This document shows, one piece after another, positions 2,121 through 56,420 of a DNA stretch of 64,000 nucleotides; within the stretch, counting starts at the first letter, position 1, and each line of letters begins with the position of its first letter. The DNA comes from Eledone cirrhosa. Lineage: Eukaryota. Position numbers and translations under genes: made by a program. The stretch lies in NCBI GenBank assembly GCA_964016885.1, contig OZ024741.1:361894001-361958000 (forward strand), given 5' to 3'. The notes below the pieces were generated by a model. The model did not search any database. It worked only from the letters and a program-made list of their open reading frames with translations, and was not told the origin of the DNA.

Positions 2121-2297
2121 ATATATATATATATTATATATATATATATATATATAATATATATATATAATATATATACATTCAAGTAAAAAAATTTTCT
2201 TCACTCTACATGGCTGAATACAATAATTTTTTTAATTTATTTGAATGTGGCAAAGCCAGCCATTTATCGCTCGTATACAGGAAACTGACTGGCCAGT

Positions 2298-2390
2298 CTG
2301 CTGATATGCAAATCTGGCCGATCAGTGGATCTGCTAATATGCAGATCTGACTGATCAGCTAGTTCGCTAATATGCAAATCATGCCGATCA
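2298..2390 (+). promoter_or_regulatory. 33-bp triplication carrying octamer motifs
   Basis: ATGCAAAT 2306-2313, ATGCAGAT 2339-2346, ATGCAAAT 2372-2379 at exact 33-bp spacing. Confidence 0.5.
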
Positions 2391-2438
2391 GACACTGTAT
2401 ATTTTAGAAAATAGCATATATTTTCACTAGCTCTGACA

Positions 2439-2520
2439 GTTGGCAGGTGAACAGTGAACTGTACTGATGAAGGGTAATACCCAGAAACATTAGTGTCTGC
2501 AGCTCTGTTTACATGCCAAC
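2439..2520 (+). ncRNA. Type I hammerhead ribozyme with long bulged stem I
   Basis: gttggcaggtgaacag-tgaa-ctgta-CTGATGA-agggtaataccca-GAAA-cattagtg-TC-tgcag-ct-ctgtttacatgccaac; distal stem I arms are complementary. Confidence 0.85.
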
Positions 2521-2687
2521 ACAAAAGCAAGAATGAAGGGTTCATTCTACTGACATGGCTTTAAAAATGAAGCTTGTTTGCATAATTGCAAACGAATTGA
2601 ATGTTATTAATATTTGAAAAACTCAGATTACATTTATTATATATACCATATACTGTACCGATTGTGTTGTTATTTCTGTTTACCTTT

Positions 2688-6440: not shown

Positions 6441-6495
6441 TGTTCTCTCAAAGCTGCGAGGCTGTACAGGTGCCATGCACACTAAAATGTTGTAC

Positions 6496-7650
6496 AGTAG
6501 TTATGAAATATTGTCACTCAGTAGCTATGAAATGTAGCTGCTCAGTAGCTATGAAATGTAGCTGCTCAGTAGCTATGAAATGTAGCTGCTCAGTAGCTAT
6601 GAAATGTAGCTGCTCAGTTGCTATGAAATGTAGCTGCTCAGTAGCTATGAAATGTAGCTGCTCAGTTGCTATGAAATGTAGCTGCTCAGTAGCTATGAAA
6701 TGTAGCTGCTCAGTAGTTATGAAATGTAGCTGCTCAGTAGCTATGAAATATTGTCGCTCAGTAGCTATGAAATGTAGCTGCTCAGTTGCTATGAAATGTA
6801 GCTGCTCAGTTGCTATGAAATGTAGCTGCTCAGTTGCTATGAAATGTAGCTGCTCAGTAGCTATGAAATGTAGCTGTTCAGTTGCTATGAAATGTAGCTG
6901 CTCAGTAGCTATGACATGTAGCTGCTCAGTTGCTATGAAATGTAGCTGCTCAGTAGCTATGAAATGTAGCTGCTCAGTAGCTATGAAATATTGTCACTCA
7001 GTAGCTATGAAATGTAGCTGCTCAGTTGCTGTGAAATGTAGCTGCTCAGTAGCTATGAAATGTAGCTGCTCAGTTGCTATGAAATGTAGCTGCTCAGTAG
7101 CTATGAAATGTAGCTGCTCAGTTGCTGTGAAATGTAGCTGCTCAGTAGCTATGAAATATTGTCACTCAGTAGCTATGAAATGTAGCTGCTCAGTTGCTAT
7201 GAAATGTAGCTGCTCAGTAGCTATGAAATATTGTCACTCAGTAGCTATGAAATGTAGCTGCTCAGTTGCTGTGAAATGTAGCTGCTCAGTAGCTATGAAA
7301 TGTTGCTGCTTAGTTGCTATGAAATGTAGCTGCTCAGTTGCTGTGAAATGTAGCTGCTCAGTAGCTATGAAATGTTGCTGCTTAGTTGCTATGAAATGTA
7401 GCTGCTCAGTAGCTATGAAATGTAGCTGCTCAGTAGCTATGAAATATTGTCACTCAGTAGCTATGAAATGTATCTGCTCAGTTGCTGTGAAATGTAGCTG
7501 CTCAGTAGCTATGAAATGTTGCTGCTTAGTTGCTATGAAATATAGCTGCTCAGTTGCTATGAAATGTTGCCACTCAGTAGCTATGAAATATTGCCACTCA
7601 GTAGCTATGGAATGTTGCCACTTAGTAGCTATGAAATGTAGCTGTTTATG
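6496..7650. repeat. 24-bp minisatellite (ctcagtagctatgaaatgtagctg), ~47 copies
   Basis: Tandem unit with recurring variants (tattgtcac, gttgctgtg, tgttgctgcttag). Confidence 0.97.
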
Positions 7651-13247: not shown

Positions 13248-14028
13248 AAGGCGATGACACACGACCGTGACCTCTGGCATCATGCAGTAATACAGAGTAC
13301 CCGACCACCCATGGGTACAAGCCGAAGCTGAAGCATATAGACAATATGCCCCCACACCCTCCCACTGCAAACTGGTCGTGGAGGTGCCACAGCAAAAAAG
13401 CACCTAGCCCACACTGTAAAGTGGACGTGGAGGTGCCACAGCAAAAAAGCACCCAGCCCACACTGTAAAGTGGACGTGGAGGTGCCACAGCAAAAAAGCA
13501 CCCAGCCCACACTGTAAAGTGGACGTGGAGGTGCCACAGCAAAAAAGCACCCAGCCCACACTGTAAAGTGGACGTGGAGGTGCCACAGCAAAAAAGCACC
13601 CAGCCCACACTGTAAAGTGGACGTGGAGGTGCCACAGCAAAAAAGCACCCAGCCCACACTGTAAAGTGGACGTGGAGGTGCCACAGCAAAAAAGCACCCA
13701 GCCCACACTGTAAAGTGGACGTGGAGGTGCCACGGCAAAAAAGCACCCAGCACTCACTGTAAAGTGGACGTGGAGGTGCCACAGCAAAAAAGCACCCAGC
13801 CCACACTGTAAAGTGGACGTGGAGGTGCCACGGCAAAAAAGCACCCAGCACTCACTGTAAATGAGGTTGGTGTTAGGAAGGGCATCCAGCTGTAGAAATC
13901 AAGCCAGAATCAGTTCCCGTACGAGCAAGACAAGGTCAGCCAACCAGACACTGCCCACAACAGGACAACCCGTCTAACCCATGCTAGCATGGAAGAACGG
14001 ATGTAAAACGGTGATGATGATGATGATG
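13248..14028 (+). mobile_element. RTE family A 3' end with a 49-bp UTR unit amplified 10 times
   Basis: Matches 200-568 and 52103-52478; unit gtggaggtgccacagcaaaaaagcacccagcccacactgtaaagtggac is tandem over 13378-13860. Confidence 0.9.
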
Positions 14029-22815: not shown

Positions 22816-24078
22816 TGTTATACTTGAGGAGGGTCATATTTGTGTAATAATATTGCCAGAATTAATAACAGAACACACTCACTGTTTGGTTGGTTTTCGT
22901 TTCTGTCTTTTATATCAGTTAATTTAATTTATTCGGTCTTCAATGTTACCATTGACTGACCAACAGTCAAAAATACAGATACAATATAGACACAAACACA
23001 TATAGTCTAACAAAGTTCTTTCGTTGCACATCTGCAACATCGTCAGTGGTGCTATTATGTTTCCTCCCATTGTATTGTATGCCTACGCCATCTTTATTTA
23101 GTCTGTTTATTTATTTATTTATTTGTTTTTTTTTTTGTCTTCTCTGCGCATGCGTTTGCATGTGTGTATAGTGTTTTGTTTGATGTGTGTTCATGTTTGG
23201 GTGACTGTGTATTGGTTATTGTATTCTATCTTAGTTTACTAGTGTGTTTATATGTGTTTGTTGTTATTGTGCTTGTGTATGTATTTATTTGCAGAAACAT
23301 GACAACAACATACATAGGCGAGACAGCTCGTAGCATAGGTGAAAGGATAGACCAACACTGGGGGGAACTAAAAGGACGAAAAAACGGTTCAGTACTATAC
23401 GAACATGCCAGACAACAACACGACGGTAACATAGACAACATAGAAATGACCCAGCACATAGGCAAATCAGAGAGGCCAGCGAAATAGAACTTAGAAGGCC
23501 AAGGCTAAACAGAAAAAATGAATGGAATAACAACAACACCCAAACAAACAACACTGACCTAAGAGAAGTATAAATAAATAAATAAATAGATAAATAAATA
23601 AATAAATAAATACATACACAAGCACAATAACAACAAACACATATAAAAACACTAGTAAACTAAGATAGAATACAATAACCAATACACAGTCACCCAAACA
23701 CGAACACACATCAAACAAAAGACTATACACACACGCAAACGCATGCGCAGAGAAGACAAAAAACAAACAAACAAATAAATAAATAAATAAACAGACTAAA
23801 TAAAGAAGGCGTAGGCATACAATACAATGGGAGGAAACATAATAGCACCACTGATGATGTTGCAGATGTGCAACGAAAGAACTTTGTTAGACTATATATA
23901 TGTGTTTGTGTCTATATTGTATCTGTATTTTTGCCCGTTGGTCAGTCAATGGTAACATTGAGGACCGAATAAATTAAATTAACCGATATAAAAGACAGAA
24001 ACAAAAACCAACCAAACAGTGAGTGTGTTCTGTTATTAATTCTGGCAATATTATTATGACCCTCTCCAAGTATAACAA
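22816..24078 (+). mobile_element. Penelope-like element 3' remnant: GIY-YIG fragment between inverted pLTRs, inserted in (TA)n inside pogo
   Basis: ~22816-23290 is the reverse complement of ~23595-24078; the spacer encodes YIGETARSIGERIDQH...SVLYEH. Confidence 0.85.
23842..23894 (+). ncRNA. Minimal hammerhead ribozyme motif (inverted copy at 23002-23055, minus strand)
   Basis: CTGATGA-t-gttgca gatg tgcaac-GAAA-gaac-TT; stem I is imperfect; the inverted copy has CTGACGA. Confidence 0.55.
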
Positions 24079-25034
24079 TATTTGTTTCGACACACGATTT
24101 CATATCAAAAACCTCGCAAAACTATATATATATATATATATAGTAATAATAATAAATTTGAAGACTAAAATCCAAAGAGGCCTCAATAAGGATAAATATA
24201 TATCAAATATATAAGAACCGTAGAGCAAATATTTATTAAAATAACAGATTAGCCAAATAGTAATAATAATAAATTTGAAGACTAAAATCCATATGTATAT
24301 ATACATATGGATATGTGAACATACAAAAATCTGTTATACTTTCAATGTTAAAAAACATGTGTTATTTCAAGTTGTTTCACTATATTAAGAGTTAATTTTC
24401 GCGCTTAAAGGCTTTATCTCGCAGTAATCTCGAATTGAGGAGAGATTTCGATGAGGTTAATGTTTATTTTATAAATAAAACATGGTTTGGAGTATATATC
24501 GCAACGGCGAAGTAATGGAAAGCTAACAGATTATTAGTTTCAATTATCATAAAAAATAGTAGTTTGACGGCCCAAATTTCAGTGCAACCTATCTGCGAGT
24601 CAATGGCAAATAGCCTATTTGTTAAATGAAAAGTGGGTATGCGACCTATCTGCCGGGGCGACCTATACGGGAGTATATATGGTATTTGCAATTATGAATA
24701 TTGTAATCCATCTGATATGTGTTAAGAGGGAAGTTTTCGGTGATATTGTTTATATAGGAGAGCTTTGGTCATGAGTCGTTCCTTGTCGCCATTTTGTCAC
24801 ATCTTATGTACAAATTTTTAAGTTTTCATTCTATTAAGGCAATATAATAATACAATGCTTACAGAACGAAAGCACAAACAAATATAATATAAAAGAAAGG
24901 AAAAAGGAAAACAAAAAAGGAAAAGAAAGAGAAAAGAAAAAAAAAACACAAGCAGTTAACACACACATTTAGGACCACATACAACAAAAGGCAGGCGAAA
25001 GGGGTGGACAAACGAGCTGCTACCAGAGTAAAAG

Positions 25035-32699: not shown

Positions 32700-35185
32700 C
32701 AATCGCAGTACAGGAAAAGGAACAAGAATATGAAGACATCACATCTCAGAGTTGCAACACTTAATGTTGGCACTCTCACAGGTAGATCTGGTGAAATAGC
32801 GGAGATGGTGGAGAGAAGGCATGTGGATGTGTGGTGTGTGCAAGAGGTGAGATGGAAAGGTACCTCTGCGAGACTAATCGCAGGCAAACATCTTAGTTAT
32901 AACCTTTTCTGGGTAGGTAAGGATGATGGGTTAGGGGGAGTAGGCATTTTCCTGGCTGAGAGATGGATCGATAAGACAATAGAGGTAGTTCGAGTTAATA
33001 GTAGAATAATTAAGCTTAGATTAGTTGTAGGCAGGAGACTACTGACAATCATCTCTGCCTATGCTCCCCAGACGGGCCTAGGTAAAGAAGAGAAAGACTG
33101 CTTTTAGGAGCAACTTTTACAAACAGCCGCAATGACAGAGGACAGAGACATCGTTATGCTAGCAGGGGACTTCAATGGTCATGTTGGACAGCTCCAGAAT
33201 GGTTACACTAGGGTACATGGTGGGCACGGTTACGGCTCAAGAAATGAAGAAAGAGTGAGACTTCTTGAATTTTGTGATGCAAGTGCACTAACCATTTGCA
33301 ACACTAACTTCCAGAAACCTGTCAATGCAAATCAGGATGTTGTTAGAGATAAATGTGTTCGGAATGATGCCGGTGCGCTTAGTGTCACGAATGATCAGAA
33401 AAAGGAGGCCTGGAAATGTCATTATGAGAGACTGATGAATGTGGAGAACGAATGGGAGAGAGAGAAATTACCCTTAGTAGATCCAACAGAGGGACCAGCT
33501 ATTGAGATTGACGAATATATGGTCCAAGAGGCGATTAAGGAAATGAAAAATGGTAAGGCCGCTTGACCGTCGGGGATAGTTCCTGAGATGCTGAAGGCAT
33601 CAGGGGACGTAGGCACTAAACTGGTTGCACGCATCATCAATCAGGCTATATATGGTGGTGTCATACCCAAAGACTGGTGCAGCAGTATTCTCATAAATTA
33701 CTACAAAGGTAAAGGGGGTGCTCTGGAGAGGAGCAATTATAGGGGTATAAAACTGATGGATCAGGTTATGAAAGTGGCAGAAATGATATTAGCACAACTA
33801 ATTAGAGAAAGTGTCAAACTAGATGAGATGCAGTTTGGTTTTGTGCCTGGGAAAAGTACAACAGATGCCCTCTTCTAGGTGAGACAATTACAAGAGAGGT
33901 TCTAAGCCACTATACTTAGCTTTTGTTGACCTAGAGAAGGCCTTTGATAGGGTACCCTGATCTGTCATCTGGTGGTCCCTAAGGAAACTAGGTGTTGAGG
34001 AATGGCTTCTGAGGACAGTACAAACTTTGTACAGAGGTGCTGTCAGTAAAGTGAAGGTAGGAATGGAGATACAAGTAGGAGTACATCAGGGTTCGGTCCT
34101 CAGCCCGCTCTTGTTCATTATAGTCCTCCAAGCCATATCAGAGAAGCTTAAGACTGGCTGTCCATGTGAACTTCTCTATGCTGACGATCTGGTTCTTATA
34201 GTAGAATCAGTAGAGAAGTTGGAGAATAAATTCTGGCTATGGAAACAGCAGTTGGAAGCAAGAGGACTGAGAGTGAACCTAGCTAAGACAAAAGTGTTGA
34301 TGAGTAGAAAAGAGGACAAAACTCTGATTCCGTCAGGGAAATGGCCATGTTCAATATGCAGAAAAGGAACTGGCATAAATTCTATAAAATGCACACAATG
34401 CAGATCCTGGGTACACAAGAGATGTAGTCGGATAGCAGGCAAACTAACAGGTAGGGAGAAATACATATGCAGTAGATGTACAGGGAAATTTGACAGTAGA
34501 AGTTGCATTGATAGACACATTTTTCAAATGCAGGTGGATGCTATAGAAGTGGTTGATAGCTTCTGGTACCTAGGTGATCAGATTAGCATGGGAGGTGGGT
34601 GTTCCGAGGCCATAGTGTCTAGAATAAGGACGGGTTGGAAGAAGTTTAGGGAGCTGCTTCCTCTGCTGACAAAGAAGGGTTTCTCCCTGCGTACAAAGGG
34701 CCGGTTATATGATGCCTGTGTGAGGAGCGTGATGCTGCATGGTAGTGAGACATGGGCAGCATCTGCAGAGGATATGCGACAGGCTGGAGAGAAATGAGGC
34801 AAACATGCTCCATTGGATGTGCAATGTCAATGTGCGTGAACGACCGAGCATGGATGTGTTGAGAGAGAGACTGTGTCTGAGAGGGATAGATTGTAGTGTA
34901 CGGGAGAGGAGACTGAGGTGGTATGGACATGTGATGCGCATGGAGGTTGACTGATGGGTGAAGAAGTGCCAGGAAATGCCAGTTGAAGGAAAACGTGGTA
35001 GAGGTAGACGACGAAAAGCATGGGCGGAGGTGGTGAGAGCAGACCTCAGATCGCTGAAGCTCACGGTGGAGATGACGAAGGACCGTGACAAGTGGAGAGA
35101 TACTGTGCTGAATAGGACCTGTCCCACCCTTGCAAGCAGGGAAAAGCGGACGTAAAATGATGATGATGATGATGATGATAATGAT
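32700..35185 (+). mobile_element. RTE-clade LINE (family B), decayed, with internal deletion
   Basis: APE (ATLNVGTL, QEVRW, AYAPQ, GDFNGH), RT (QFGF, HQGSVLSP, YADD), C-terminus, (GAT)n tail; ~0.6-kb deletion near 33325 relative to family A. Confidence 0.93.
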
Positions 35186-39135: not shown

Positions 39136-40672
39136 TCATCATCATCATCATCATCATCATTGTTTAACGTCCATGTTCCACGCTTGCATGGGCTTGGACG
39201 GGGGTTTTCCCACTTGAGGCAAGAGTGATTGTCTTGCTCGCATAGGACTGTCTGGCGGGTTTTCTACAGCTGGATGCCCTTCCTAACACCAACCACATTT
39301 ACAGTGTGGGGCTGGGAGGTTTTTACCGTGTTGCCTACACGGCCACATTACAGCGTGGAGTGTGTTTTTTGTCGTGACACCTACACGATCTCATTTGTTT
39401 CAGCCTGGATGTTGTGGCACCAACATAACTTTACATTGAAAGGGGCGGTGTGGATGGGGTGGGGGTGGTGGGACGGGGGTGTATTTTGTTAGAGATGCCT
39501 ACTGACTGTAGTAGGTTTTACTTTGTATTTAGGTAAGGCGGGTCTTCTCTATTACTGAGTACCGCCAAAGGTCTCGGTCCAGTGACATTGTCTTGGAGAG
39601 GTGCAAGTGTGTGAGGTCGGAATTTATCAGCTCGTCCCAGGTTTTTCTGGGTCTGCCTACTCCGTAGCTACCGTCTATCTTTATTGCCCTGCACTTTGTT
39701 ATACAGCTGTCGTCTTTCATGCGCATCACGTGACCATACCAACGTAGCCTTCTCTTGAGTAAACAACATCTGATCCCTCTTATTTCTAATTTTTTCCTTA
39801 GTTCGCTTATGCTTTGCCGTTCACGTATGTTACTATTACACATCCAGCGGAGCATGCAAGCTTCATTCCTCTCTAGTCTGCTTATATCCTCTGCACACAA
39901 TGCCCAGGTCTCACTGCCATGCAACATTGCTGTTCGTATGCAGGCATCATACAGCCTGCCTTTCATTTTTAGGGAGAACCCTTTAGCGGCTAATAGTGGT
40001 ATAAGCTCTCTGAACTTTTTCCATCCAGTTCTGACTCTAGCTACTGTACTTTCAGAGCACCCTCCCCCACTGGTGATTTTGTCACCCAGGTAACGGAAGC
40101 TGTCCACTATTTCTATAGAACCCTCTGCGCAATTGAAAGAGCTAGTATTTTGTGGGCACTTGCTGCTACTTATTGCACCAGAGCACCGGCCACATGTAAA
40201 ATCTATGTTCTTAGTTAGCTTACCTGTGACCCCACTACATCTTTTATGCACCCATACTTTGCATTTGGGACATAAAATGGAGTTTCTACCTACGCCTTTC
40301 CTACACACTGAACATGGCCATTTCCCGGAAGGAACCATCGCCTTATTTTCTTTCCTACAAACTAGAACTTTAGTCTTAGCCAGGTTAATTTTAAGCCCTT
40401 TTGATTCTAGGCCATGTTTCCATGTTTGGAATTTCTTCTCTAGCTCGGCCATTGATTCAGCTATGAGCATTAGATCATCTGCGTATAGGAGTTCCCATGG
40501 ACAGCCGGTCTTGAACTCCACTGTTATAGCCTGAAGGGCAATAATAAATAGTAGGGGGCTAAGAACAGAGCCCTGATGTACACCAACTTTTACACTAAAC
40601 TCTTCACTATATTCGTTGTTAATTCTAACCTTGCTGACTGTTTCTTTATACATGGCTTGTATAGCTCTCACA
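39136..40672 (-). mobile_element. 5'-truncated RTE LINE (family C)
   Basis: ORF 39529..40752 with HQGSVLSP, YADD and RLRWYGHV; (GAT)n tail; both ends in (TA)n. Confidence 0.95.
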
Positions 40673-40838
40673 ATATATATATATATATATATATAATTGG
40701 ATATATGAGAGGGATGAACACAGATATAACTATACATGTGTTCCAATTGCAAATGACCAAGTTAGCTAGGTTGAAAAATACTAATTTAAAACATAATAAA
40801 TCAATAAAAATAACAAACCTATATCCTCAATCTATGAT

Positions 40839-48888: not shown

Positions 48889-51800
48889 TCCACTGCTGCT
48901 GCTGCTACTACCTGCCTAACTAACTCTCTCCTCCTCTGGCGCATCCCAACACACCCTGCCATTACCCCACCACCACTGTCCTTCTAGCCCTCAATTTTCC
49001 CACCGTTATGGATGGATGAGCTGGGAATACACGAGCAACTCTGAATCAATAGATGAAATATGAATCTGCGAGCTACCAAGCACCCACGTGAAGCGCCAAC
49101 CCAGAGACCCTCCCCTACGAGTGTCGACAAATGCCCAAAACTCCGAGTTGGTACCATCAATGTAGGCTCAATGAAAGGAAGAGCAGGAGAAATCGTAGAA
49201 ATGCTAGAGCGAAAGGAAGTTGATGTATGCTGTGTGCAAGAGACTAGATAGAGAGGAGGGTCTGCTAGAGTCCTTGTAGGAAAAAGCCAGTGCTACAAAT
49301 TTTTCTGGGTGGGAAATGACGATGGGATGGGTGGTGTAGGTATACTATTAGCTGACAAGTGGGTAGATAAAGTAATCTCAGTGTACAGGGTAAATGCAAG
49401 AATCATTAAACTCAGACTAGTCCTGAATAAGACAATTACCACAATAATATCAGCTTACGCACCCCAATCGGGGCTGCCAGACGAACTTAAGGATAGGTTT
49501 TACGAGTCCCTAATACACACTACTGCTCTAACAGACGACAAGGACTTCCTAATCATTGCAGGAGATTTTAACGGACACGTAGGTAAACACTGCGACGGCT
49601 TCAATAGAGTACATGGAGGCCATGGAGTTGGCACAAGGAATGAGGAAGGATTCAGACTTCTAGAATTCTGCGACGCCAATGACATGTCGATATGTAACAC
49701 AAACTTTAAAAAACCCGACAACCACCTGATCACCTATAGATCAGGGGAGCACTCTAGTCAGTTAGATTTTATCCTCATCAGAGGACGTGACAGATGGACG
49801 GTCGTAAACACAAAAGCCTTCCCTAGTGAGGAATGTACATCCCAACATAGCTTAGTTGTCAGCGACCTCACGGTCAGAACTAGACGAGCCCTGAAACAGA
49901 GGCCAACCTGGAGAAGAAAGATCTGGAAGCTGAAAGTCCCCTCAACCAGTAACAGATTTAAAGATATTTTACTCAACGCCTACGACAGTAAAGAAGAACA
50001 GATAGAGACATTTAACGTAGAAGAGAACTGGGAGTTCCTAAAAAATAACTTACTAGAGGCGACGGATGAGGTTTGTGGCTGGAGTAAGACCTCAAGCAGG
50101 AGGAGAGTGACTTGGTGGTGGAACAATAAGGTAGATGAAGCAGTCAAGGCCAAGAGACAGGCATGGAAAGAATGGAAGAACGGGGGGAGCAGGGTACATT
50201 ACATAGAGACCAAGAGGGAAGCTAGGCGACAAGTATACTTAGCTAGGAGGGAAGCAGAGGATAGAAAATTCAAGCATGTTTTACAACGTGAGGACCAGAA
50301 ACAGGAGGTATTCAAGATTGCGAGGCAGTGTGTCAGAGATAGTTGTGATGTCATTGGAGAGAAGTGTATCCGGAATGATAAAGGTGAGCTTGCCCTCACA
50401 AGTGCTGAGAAGAAAGATGCATGGAAGAGTCATTATGATAGATTACTAAATGAGGAGAATGCATGGGAAGAAGAGACCCTACCCCACGTAGACCCTATAG
50501 AGGGACCAGCAGTACAAGTCAGCGGCAGCGTAGTAAGTAAGGCAATCAGAGATATGAAGATAGGGAAGGCAACCGGTCCATCGGGTATAGCTGCCGAGAT
50601 GCTGAAGGCATCTGGGTCTGTAGGTCACACTATAACCACACGTATCGTTAACCAGGTAATACTAGAGGGGGCCATACCAAAAGATTGGTGCAGTAGCATC
50701 ATTGTCAACTGCTACAAAGGTAAAGGCGATGCACTAGATAGAGGAAACTATAGAGGTATAAAGTTGATGGACCAGGTCATGAAAGTAACAGAAAGAGTTA
50801 TAGCACAGCTGATTAGGGACCGGGTGAATATAGACGAGATGCAATTTGGGTTTGTACCAGGGAAAGGCACCACTGATGCGCTCTTCCTTGTGAGGCAATT
50901 ACAGGAAAAGTACCTAGCTAAAAGTAAGCCACTCTACTTGGCATTTGTCGACCTTGAGAAAGCCTTTGACAGAGTTCCACGTGCAGTAATCTGGTGGGCT
51001 CTTAGAAAACTAGGAGTAGATGAATGGCTTGTGAAAGCGGTACAAGCCATGTATAGGGGAGCAGTCAGCAAAGTTAGGATTGGCAATGAGTATAGCAAGG
51101 AATTTAGCGTACAGGTTGGGGTCCACCAGGGCTCTGTTCTTAGCCCTCTCCTGTTCATCATAGTCCTGCAGGCAATAACGGAGGAATTTAAGACCGGATG
51201 CCCATGGGAACTCCTGTATGCTGATGACCTCGCACTCATAGCTGAATCTATGGTAGAACTAGAGAATAAATTCCAAACCTGGAAGCAGGGACTAGAGAGA
51301 AAGGGCCTCAAAGTCAACATGACAAAGACTAAGGTCCTTATAAGTAGACGAGAAAACAGAACCCAGATCCCCTCAGGGAAATGGCCTTGCTCAGTATGTA
51401 GGAAAGGTGTAGGTAGGAACTCCATTCTTTGCCCCAAATGCAAACAATGGGTACACAAGAGATGTAGCGGGATCTCAGGAAGCTTAATTAAGAATGTAGG
51501 ATTCACATGCAGCAGCTGTGCTGAAACAGCAAGCAAACAGCCACAGGAAACAAGTACCACCAATCTCTGGGAGGGCCCTGTAGAAACAGTAGACAGCTTC
51601 TGCTACCTAGGTGACCGAATTAGCAACGGAGGTGGGTGCTCAGAAAGTACAATAACTAGGGTAAGAACGGGATGGAAGAAGTTTAGGGAACTACTACCAC
51701 TGCTAGCTGCAAAAGGCTTCTCCCTCAGAATGAAAGGCAGACTGTATGACGCGTGTATCCGAACAGTGATGTTGCATGGTAGTGAGACCTGGGCGCTGAA

Positions 51801-52475
51801 GGTGGAAGACTTACGTAGATTAGAGAGAAACGAAGCCTGCATGCTCCGATGGATGTGTAACAGTAATATACGTGAACGACAAAGCATAAATGAATTGAGA
51901 GAGAGACTGAGCATAAGAGGAATCAAATGCTGCGTGCAGGAGAGGCGGTTACGCTGGTATGGACATGTGATGCGTATGAAGGATGACAGCTGCATAAAAA
52001 GGTGCAGAGCACTAGAAGTTGATGGAAACCGCGGAGTGGGGAGACCCAAGATGACTTGGGATGAGGTGATAAAAGCCGACCTTACCCAACTACACCTCTC
52101 AAAGTCAATGACACACGACCGTGACTTCTGGCGTCACGCAGTAATACAGGGTACCCGACCTCCCATGGGTACATGCTGAAGCATATAAACAATATGCCCC
52201 CCCCCCCCACCGCAAGGTGGTCGTGGAGGTGCCACGGCAAAAAAGCACCCAGCCCACACTGTAAAGTGGACGTGTAGGCGCCACGAAAAAGCACCCAGCA
52301 CTCACTGTAAATGAGGTTGGTGTTAGGAAGGGCATCCAGCTGTAGAAATCAAGCCAGATCAGTTCCTGTATGAGCAAGGCATGGTCAGCCGACCAGACAC
52401 TGCCCACAACAGGACAACCCGTCTAACCCATGCTAGCGTGGAAGAACGGACGTAAAACGGTGATGATGATGATGA

Positions 52476-55409: not shown

Positions 55410-56420
55410 GTAGTAATAGAAGCTGTCCATGGGACTGATCTTAATGATAGAGTGATCTAAAATTGAACTGAAGTAGTAATTGTTTCTAAATATATCTATC
55501 TTTCTTAGTATTTCTGTAGGAATTACTGTCGTTCTTAATTTGTCCATTGGTGCTAATGCGTTGATTATGGGTAGCATTGTCTTTAAATCTATAGAGAGGA
55601 AAAGTTCTGAAGTTGAGTTGTTCATTAGAGGTGCAGGTGTCAATGTGTTCACTCAGTGCTATTTTTCTGTATTCCTGTATTTTAATTTGGGATCTATGAA
55701 CGGTCATACGCTGACGAAGACTGCTTTTAGTTTGTCCTATGTACTGCTCTTGACAGCCTGAGCAAGTTAATACATATATCAGGTTTTCTGATGCACATGT
55801 GAAATTGTTTTTCAAAGTGTTGACCCTGTTTGAAACAAAACTCCGATCCCACGCATATACCACAGTTAAGTCTTCCACATTTTTTTTACTGTTGGTTTTG
55901 TTGTGGTGGTCGACTGGATATTGGCTTGTATTAGGATATTTTTCATTGACTGGGGTTGTCCTTTTCTCTTTATAATGTTGTGCATTTGAAGGATTTGGTT
56001 CATTCTATGATCCCCCTTTTTAAAGGAATGTTTTGGAGGATGGTGTCGAAGGCCTCATTGTTTAGGGGGTTGTGTGTTGAGATATATAGTAGGCCGTTCA
56101 GTTTCGATTCGTTCTTTAGTTTGGGGTGACCAAGTTCCTGCATACTGAGTTTTAGGGCACGTTGGAATCTATTGTTAATTAGGGGTGGTGGGCAATTCTT
56201 GCTGATGAGCGTATCCTTTAGATCTTGTAGTCGTATGTAACAGGTGTTTATATCAGATACTATTGTACAAATCCTTTTGGCTAGGCTGTAAGGGATATTC
56301 ATTTTAGTGTGTCTCAGGTGGCATGAGTTGAACAGAAGATATTGCTTGGAGTCTGTGGGCTTATAGTATATGTCTGTTTCTATTTTGTAGTTAGTTTTCT
56401 TAAAAAGGATGTCGACTTAT
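55410..56420 (-). mobile_element. Decayed Penelope-like element (second clade): RT thumb + GIY-YIG
   Basis: TDIYYKPTDSKQYL..SCH..HTK.NIPYS.A.RI; NLIYVLTC..C..QYIGQT...RQRM..HR. Confidence 0.88.

Follow-up and report, generated by a model that had tools for sequence, protein, structure and literature searches.

Satellite 2 of newts (Coats et al. 1994), one of the closest described systems, reportedly has a promoter of the octamer/PSE type. This hammerhead repeat is described as a polymerase II transcription unit with an internal promoter of the snRNA type, and it is named, together with a schistosome satellite, as having internal promoters (PMC2220036). Metazoan non-LTR retrozymes, as described from coral, mussel and axolotl, are small units of low GC content, devoid of ORF, with one type I hammerhead per unit, which occur as dimers, are predicted to form self-paired circles and co-occur with Penelope-like elements (PMC7229834; bioRxiv 10.64898/2026.07.22.740005). 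A molluscan retrozyme, that of mussel, is already known (PMC7229834). Animal retrozymes accumulate as abundant circular RNAs, and read-through expression has been proposed for them since promoters were not seen (PMC7761336). Endonuclease-bearing Penelope-like elements carry hammerheads in their pseudo-LTRs (PMC8557442; PMC4209133; PMC11167929), and their insertions are characterised by partial tandems, inverted 5′ copies, short tails, and AT-rich or microsatellite targets (PMC8557442), the tail being the stretch between two internal start sites of reverse transcription (PMC11167929).

The window analysed here is a stretch of 64,000 nucleotides from Eledone cirrhosa, and the positions given below are those of this window. 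Its block from 2178 to about 2635, which the preliminary description had proposed to be a retrozyme driven by an snRNA-type promoter, is one copy of a dispersed 439-bp hammerhead repeat without ORF and is not unique. The unit, derived from the 30 best loci, has a GC content of 38%, and both its length and its composition lie within the limits applied to non-LTR retrozymes (about 150-450 bp, GC under 45-50%); its predicted circular monomer is 70% paired (z -11 versus 60 shuffles). A first look through the 3.0-Gb genome yielded 4,242 candidates, and positions 2225-2645 matched the 40 best places, those that were scored, at 90-95%, the window itself apart. A 25-letter pattern of the unit has at least 1,676 exact matches in the genome (control pattern, 0), from which we infer several thousand copies once divergence is allowed for. 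The family of this 439-bp unit, to which the window copy belongs, is called family A, and its structure was examined in 117 non-overlapping loci, namely the 30 best and 87 sampled by pattern from contig 1, with 3 overlapping loci left out.

The window copy comprises a forward monomer with one hammerhead (2225-2635, + strand; unit positions 26-439), which has 95% identity with the majority sequence of the family, and an inverted 5′ piece (2178-2224, − strand) that aligns to unit positions 1-49, forms a Penelope-type tail and adjoins the (TA)n target microsatellite at 2111-2178. The block had been thought to be bounded by (TA)n; this holds for the 5′ side, and the tail-less 3′ end is followed by just a short TA run (2636-2645), positions 2646-2690 being part of a different repeat. 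The absence of a TE ORF was borne out, no ORF of at least 150 aa overlapping the block. Private mutations affect the octamer box, the YCAG motif and stem I, and this copy, with one ribozyme and mutated motifs, would not itself be expected to yield a circle. Three runs, consisting of the assembled contigs of one sample, the kind of which is unrecorded, contained nothing beyond family variants.

Insertions of family A show the anatomy of Penelope-like elements, with which they share partial tandems, inverted 5′ copies, tails and targets. A direct tandem with a 5′-truncated unit is present in 47 of the 117 loci, an inverted piece in 68 and a short tail in 61, at least one of these features being found in 93. 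Two hammerheads in tandem occur in 15 loci; the longest tandem seen in the 117 loci is of about 2.3 units, and no long arrays were seen there. Element ends cluster twice, at unit positions 432-439 (107 ends) and 22-50 (63 tails); the tails are 30-40 bp long, and TA repeats follow 92 of the 107 tail-less ends. The small ORF-less unit, the type I hammerhead, the tandem copies and the Penelope-type ends support the assignment of the element to the non-LTR retrozymes, as had been suggested, and its ends make mobilisation by a Penelope-like reverse transcriptase likely. The 439-bp element shares with the metazoan non-LTR retrozymes their small low-GC unit without ORF, the single type I hammerhead per unit, the dimers, the predicted self-paired circle and the co-occurrence with Penelope-like elements. 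It differs from them in consisting mostly of dispersed monomers and partial tandems, in its explicit Penelope tails and inversions, in the A.A at the base of its stem II and in its conserved promoter-like module.

Other repeats were observed in the window and in the family. Positions 1324-2120 hold a different element with inverted arms (1324-1489 and 1793-1959), whose repeated short end adjoins the (TA)n that received the 439-bp copy. LINE-type ORFs at 33961-34797, 39529-40761 and 49252-52179, the last with an open frame of 975 aa, encode an endonuclease, a reverse transcriptase and then directly a PHD finger. A Neptune-like GIY-YIG fragment, interrupted by a SINE-like repeat, lies at 55486-56004 (−), and minisatellites were found at 6495-7644 (24 bp, 48 copies) and 13363-13861 (49 bp, 10 copies). 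At unit position 407, an insert is present at an identical ATTATTAAT site in 18 segments, with variable left breakpoints (L007, L066, L084, L087, L115, L123, L136-L138, L146, L156, L163, L169, L171 and others); most of these inserts are a SINE-like repeat of about 190 bp in which ARAGORN calls no tRNA, and they suggest repeated, site-preferring insertion. At locus L230, a U6atac copy is fused directly to an inverted fragment of the 439-bp element, as from a template switch in reverse transcription.

Core pattern and folding identify an extended type I hammerhead motif at 2439-2520 (+). Its core has the coordinates given in the preliminary description, with CTGATGA at 2464-2470, GAAA at 2484-2487 and GTC at 2495-2497, and cleavage is predicted after C2497. 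Stem I, previously put at about 20 bp across an internal loop, comprises about 21 pairs: after 5 inner pairs come an A.C mismatch that only the window copy has, a single additional pair, a bulge and then an outer helix of 16 positions (2439-2454 with 2505-2520) containing one G.A mismatch; the fold of 2435-2525 has a z-score of -3.7, and none of 200 shuffles was as good. Of the three common variants, two lie in stem I and keep its pairing (G.U to A-U and G.U to G-C), and one falls in loop II. This long, bulged stem I distinguishes the element from the minimal form found in Penelope-like elements. Short-stem motifs are indeed present elsewhere in the window, as had been noted, at 23851, 23046 (−), 62778 and 42028 (−); those at 23851 (+) and 23046 (−) are minimal hammerheads in an inverted arrangement within a Penelope-like fragment with a GIY-YIG remnant (22820-24125). 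Comparison with the Rfam hammerhead models, put forward earlier as a check, gave no match to the window motif, neither at the gathering score nor at E up to 10.

At the base of stem II, A2471.A2483 takes the place of the canonical G-C. The latter pair, G10.1-C11.1, is described as the second most conserved of the hammerhead (PMC3088659), and hammerheads with U.U in its position are known to cleave (PMC3088659; in axolotl, PMC7229834); no statement on A.A at the stem II base was found in these two sources. In family A, 117 of 124 copies have A.A, which is therefore a family state and not decay, and 89 of the 124 have an intact core. The extra base between positions 9 and 10.1, typical of Penelope hammerheads (PMC4209133), is shared by the element, which differs from them in having an extra A on the 3′ side of stem II as well. 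Also shared is the palindromic stem III (2487-2496), a 10-nt self-complementary stretch with a self-duplex of -8.8 kcal/mol; it is through such a stem that type I hammerheads of animals can cleave in dimeric form (PMC4209133). In the fold predicted for the monomer, stem III is paired with the core, which is thus hidden, and this fold lies below the active one by 6.5 kcal/mol for the family and 8.1 kcal/mol for the window copy. Cleavage by dimers is plausible, with about even chances, and the predicted geometry is compatible with a tertiary contact between loop II and the bulge of stem I; the A.A that opens stem II makes fast cleavage uncertain. As regards related systems, eight of nine predicted dimers of frog retrozymes showed no cleavage in vitro (bioRxiv 10.64898/2026.07.22.740005), and in an anole element cleavage needed protein and could be dispensed with in vitro (PMC11167929).

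Upstream of the hammerhead, tandem finding and folding delineate three 33-bp repeats (2297-2395, +; 2.9 copies), each with an octamer or octamer-like box and TCAG 16 bp further on. Three octamers had been reported at 33-bp spacing: the spacing is correct, with boxes at 2306, 2339 and 2372, and the middle one is a variant, ATGCAGAT. The three stem from one tandem duplication and are not independent; copies with one 33-bp repeat deleted occur in family A, and as RNA the repeats fold into a long hairpin (z -5.8). The third repeat contains an octamer box (2371-2382, +; private G>T at 2382) resembling that found at -76 to -78 in U6, U6atac and MRP genes and, at octamer +16, a YCAG motif (2388-2392, +; private T>A at 2392) resembling the TCAGT core at -55 to -58 of U1, U2, U4 and U5 genes. 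A weak TATA-like box lies at octamer +43 (2415-2421, +) and is stronger, at +41/+42, in other families. Spacings in host snRNA genes would place the start of transcription at 2445-2448 (+).

The host promoters used for comparison were those of the U1, U2, U4, U5, U6, U6atac and MRP loci of this genome (upstream 100 bp in L031-L064, L109-L114, L205-L226 and L053-L055). The polymerase II model was trained on 15 non-redundant promoters of 42, with 27 upstream regions dropped as redundant; one near-duplicate pair left in this set inflates the leave-one-out score of that pair. The polymerase III model was trained on five promoters that were selected visually because they carry the box, and the rows dropped were, for U6, 14 places without the start pattern, 1 with an upstream repeat and 2 redundant, and, for U6atac, the 5 of 6 loci that were devoid of promoter features. 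In the 15 U1/U2/U4/U5 promoters, three motifs follow one another: an AATTA box at about -90 (15/15), YCAG close to -57 and a TATA-like box close to -32. The five U6, U6atac and MRP promoters combine an octamer-type box at -76 to -78 with a TATA box at -30. A TTACCTCCC-type motif lies near -260 in many of the host snRNA promoters (U1/U2/U4/U5/U6/U6atac/MRP). This layout differs from that of vertebrates (PMC9652321) by an octamer close to the start and by TATA in both polymerase classes; in plants, spacing sets the choice of polymerase (PMC9652321).

The octamer box TATG(C/G)(A/T)AAT(T/G)AG reached 15.5 bits in the family sequence (host, 13.9-18.0 leave-one-out; 1/1000 shuffles) and 10.7 bits in the window copy, in a polymerase III matrix that any good POU site would match. 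The YCAG core scored 12.6 bits (host, 1.9-17.3; 8/300 shuffles) and 7.0 bits in the window copy; among 130 positions, octamer +16 ranked first as a polymerase II site in families A, B and C, but not in D. The TATA-like box 21-27 bp past the core gave 1.3 bits in family A, 9.8 in B, 4.5-4.8 in C and 3.4 in D. The AATTA box expected at about -90 is absent from the element (-5.5 bits), and its total under the full polymerase II model is 8.4 bits, versus 18.1-39.1 for the host. Likewise, TATA is absent at 46-48 bp past the octamer (-3.4 bits), the distance seen in the five polymerase III genes; in the elements this distance is 41-45 bp, with an optimum at +43 in family A and +42 in family B. Nor does the element have the distal TTACCTCCC-type motif (best, 3-4 mismatches). 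In sequence, therefore, the parts match those of host snRNA promoters and the whole module fits neither class: an octamer box shared with the polymerase III genes (U6, U6atac, MRP) precedes a YCAG core and a TATA-like box spaced roughly as in the polymerase II genes (U1/U2/U4/U5), in a hybrid order found in neither, with the octamer 2-6 bp nearer TATA than in polymerase III genes. The proposed likeness to host snRNA promoters thus stands for the octamer box and the YCAG core, and falls for the AATTA box and the TATA spacing; a strict newt-like promoter, made of an octamer enhancer and a PSE, is not what we found, since neither host model is matched in full.

Five families share the module, defined as an octamer followed by YCA at +16 and by a TATA-like box at +41 to +43, with the hammerhead core 80-100 bp downstream. 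Family B (517 candidates, 311-bp unit; L235-L274) was reached through the stem III pattern alone. Its box is identical to that of family A at 12 of 13 positions and both lie 92 bp from the core; in family B, CAG keeps its offset, a good TATA follows at +42 and the core lies at +92 exactly, whereas the spacer is identical at 12 of 42 positions. The 3′ parts of the two families align no better than shuffles (181/200 as good), and their stem sequences differ. Families C (L152/L164/L199/L028) and D (L068) were found by a hammerhead scan blind to octamers and have the same offsets, with cores at +80 to +100. Family D, with a unit of about 470 bp, is multi-copy and has no common variant inside the module, and the YCAG matrix failed in it (-14.3 bits). 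The same offsets were seen in family F (L120/L234), which was found by a module scan; family E (L030; about 310 bp, in tandem) has no octamer. The base of stem II is T.T in family B and the canonical G-C in family D. No ORF was seen in the examined DNA of families B, C, D, E and F. In 759 kb outside family A, a sample that includes 40 family B loci and some overlapping loci, the module was present at 8 of 90 octamers, and all 8 belong to the hammerhead families B, C, D and F; the probability of a chance octamer in a 31-bp window is about 0.001. The octamer is absent in six or seven of 11-12 hammerhead clusters, including one beside a Penelope ORF. As the families may share an ancestor, what is shown is selection on the module and not its independent invention.

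Some candidates were set aside during these comparisons. A sister family with the canonical G-C and the same stem III was not found among the 3 matches to the stem III pattern, two of which are family B with T.T and one a rearranged family A copy. The 27 metagenome loci that combine a box and a hammerhead were rejected as support: 24 look like chance, and the other three (L276, L288 and L295) have real-looking minimal hammerheads, with the octamer at an inverted-copy junction and the other motifs absent.

From these comparisons, the element is probably an ORF-less retrozyme with Penelope-type ends, copied by a Penelope-like reverse transcriptase, whose own octamer-YCA-TATA module would serve as an snRNA-like polymerase II promoter starting near 2445. 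The earlier idea of a self-promoting ribozyme RNA is thus retained in part, on the comparative evidence of a box at fixed spacing with two motifs in five families. The unit, a lower bound on its copy number, its ends, the fold of its hammerhead and the preservation of the module in five families are established, and from these we infer all the RNA-level steps of the cycle. In a tandem locus, polymerase II would start about 50 nt before the cleavage site and read into the next unit; the two hammerheads, paired through their self-complementary stem III, would release a monomer of 439 nt that carries the promoter inside and may be closed by ligation into a circle. A Penelope-like enzyme would then nick (TA)n DNA, and reverse transcription from two internal sites (unit about 439 and about 30-41) would generate tail-less and tailed ends, partial tandems and inversions. 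A box, a ribozyme and a second ribozyme occur in this order in 2 of the 117 loci only, and few loci could therefore be sources. A broader proposal, which we advance tentatively and regard as somewhat doubtful, is that at least five divergent retrozyme families possess one inherited hybrid snRNA-type promoter, which would attract the snRNA machinery, with a polymerase II start just before the hammerhead that would make their units self-expressing and let them carry the promoter along within the circle. The hybrid would, equally tentatively, consist of a U6-class octamer box joined at a new spacing to a U1-class core and TATA.

It is rather unlikely that the same retrozyme is expressed only by read-through from host promoters, the motifs acting as RNA hairpins, as a site for a reverse transcription or integration protein, or as a mere enhancer. 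The published view that promoters seem to be missing from metazoan retrozymes (PMC7761336) speaks for this, as does the strong RNA folding of the 33-bp repeats; this triplicated hairpin is specific to family A, however, and the other module families have a single box. Similarly, 13 of the 15 two-ribozyme loci have no box before the first ribozyme, and the 202 5′ breakpoints, which are broadly spread, show no peak at the predicted start and no sharp stop there or at the cleavage site. We did not accept these breakpoints as evidence for cleavage in vivo or for the start site, the mild rise near the cleavage site being explained by the sampling pattern. A promoter function is favoured over read-through by the three motifs, which hold base-exact spacing in five families while the spacers have diverged, and each of which resembles a part of host snRNA promoters at a matching distance.

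A second possibility, which we consider improbable, is that the module is a type 3 polymerase III promoter giving an RNA of about 230 nt, which would terminate at a T tract and be shortened by the ribozyme, while other transcripts would supply the mobile template. The match of the box to U6, U6atac and MRP genes would fit, and nowhere from the predicted start up to the tract at which the tails stop do four or more T follow one another. The octamer-to-TATA distance of 41-45 instead of 46-48 argues otherwise, and the YCAG motif belongs to polymerase II genes in this genome. Family B has no run of four T at all, and the T tract was rejected as a conserved polymerase III terminator, being absent in that family; tails of 30-40 bp are a general feature of Penelope-like elements (PMC8557442). 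Polymerase II is preferred over polymerase III because the T run at unit positions 28-39 would stop the latter before the second ribozyme.

We give the same low probability to the unit being the solo pseudo-LTR of an autonomous Penelope-like element, with the module as its ordinary mRNA promoter. Penelope-type ends would be expected in that case, pseudo-LTRs hold promoters and hammerheads (PMC4209133; PMC8557442), and frog retrozymes derive from pseudo-LTRs (bioRxiv 10.64898/2026.07.22.740005). The preliminary description had taken copies always attached to Penelope ORFs as an argument against its proposal; in none of the 117 loci is a reverse transcriptase or GIY-YIG ORF linked to the unit, in which the element also differs from Penelope-like elements, and GIY-YIG similarity is limited to scattered, unlinked places in 9 of them. 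What stands before a full unit in these loci is the 3′ end of the unit itself, a piece in inverted orientation, or DNA of the target. No autonomous partner ending in the 439-bp unit was found among 30 examined of the 10,595 genomic GIY-YIG candidates, a small fraction that leaves some room for such an element; locus L185 was rejected as a partner, its overlap being with a neighbour on the opposite strand. In L204, the sole ORF-linked hammerhead examined in full, CCAAT-like and TATA motifs are present and the octamer is absent. Finally, exaptation of the window copy as a host ribozyme or regulatory RNA gene, which had also been suggested and to which the intact core and long stem I could point, is highly improbable for an ordinary dispersed copy, one among well over a thousand similar ones, lying inside a nest of repeats and with private changes that weaken its box, YCAG motif and stem I.

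The class of the element is known, in a mollusc as well, and the shared promoter-like module appears new in the literature searched. Within its scope (titles and abstract openings, with few subscription papers), this literature gave no account of the 439-bp element, of a cephalopod retrozyme or of such a module; the 439-bp family may already be catalogued in Repbase or Dfam. The likeness to newt satellite 2 lies in a hammerhead repeat with an snRNA-type promoter, predicted here from sequence alone. The differences are that here the octamer lies 16 bp from an snRNA-like core, that a TATA-like box comes after it and that the arrangement recurs in five divergent families.

A three-part module at exact spacing in five families offers a precise predicted start site and boxes that can be mutated, and the grammar of the host snRNA promoters is useful for expression tools of the U6 type. 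The natural A.A variant of stem II and the clean two-site tails provide material for studying the Penelope-driven mobilisation of non-coding RNAs. If true, the reading of the module as a hybrid promoter would generalise the case of newt satellite 2 and contradict the read-through model for animal retrozymes.
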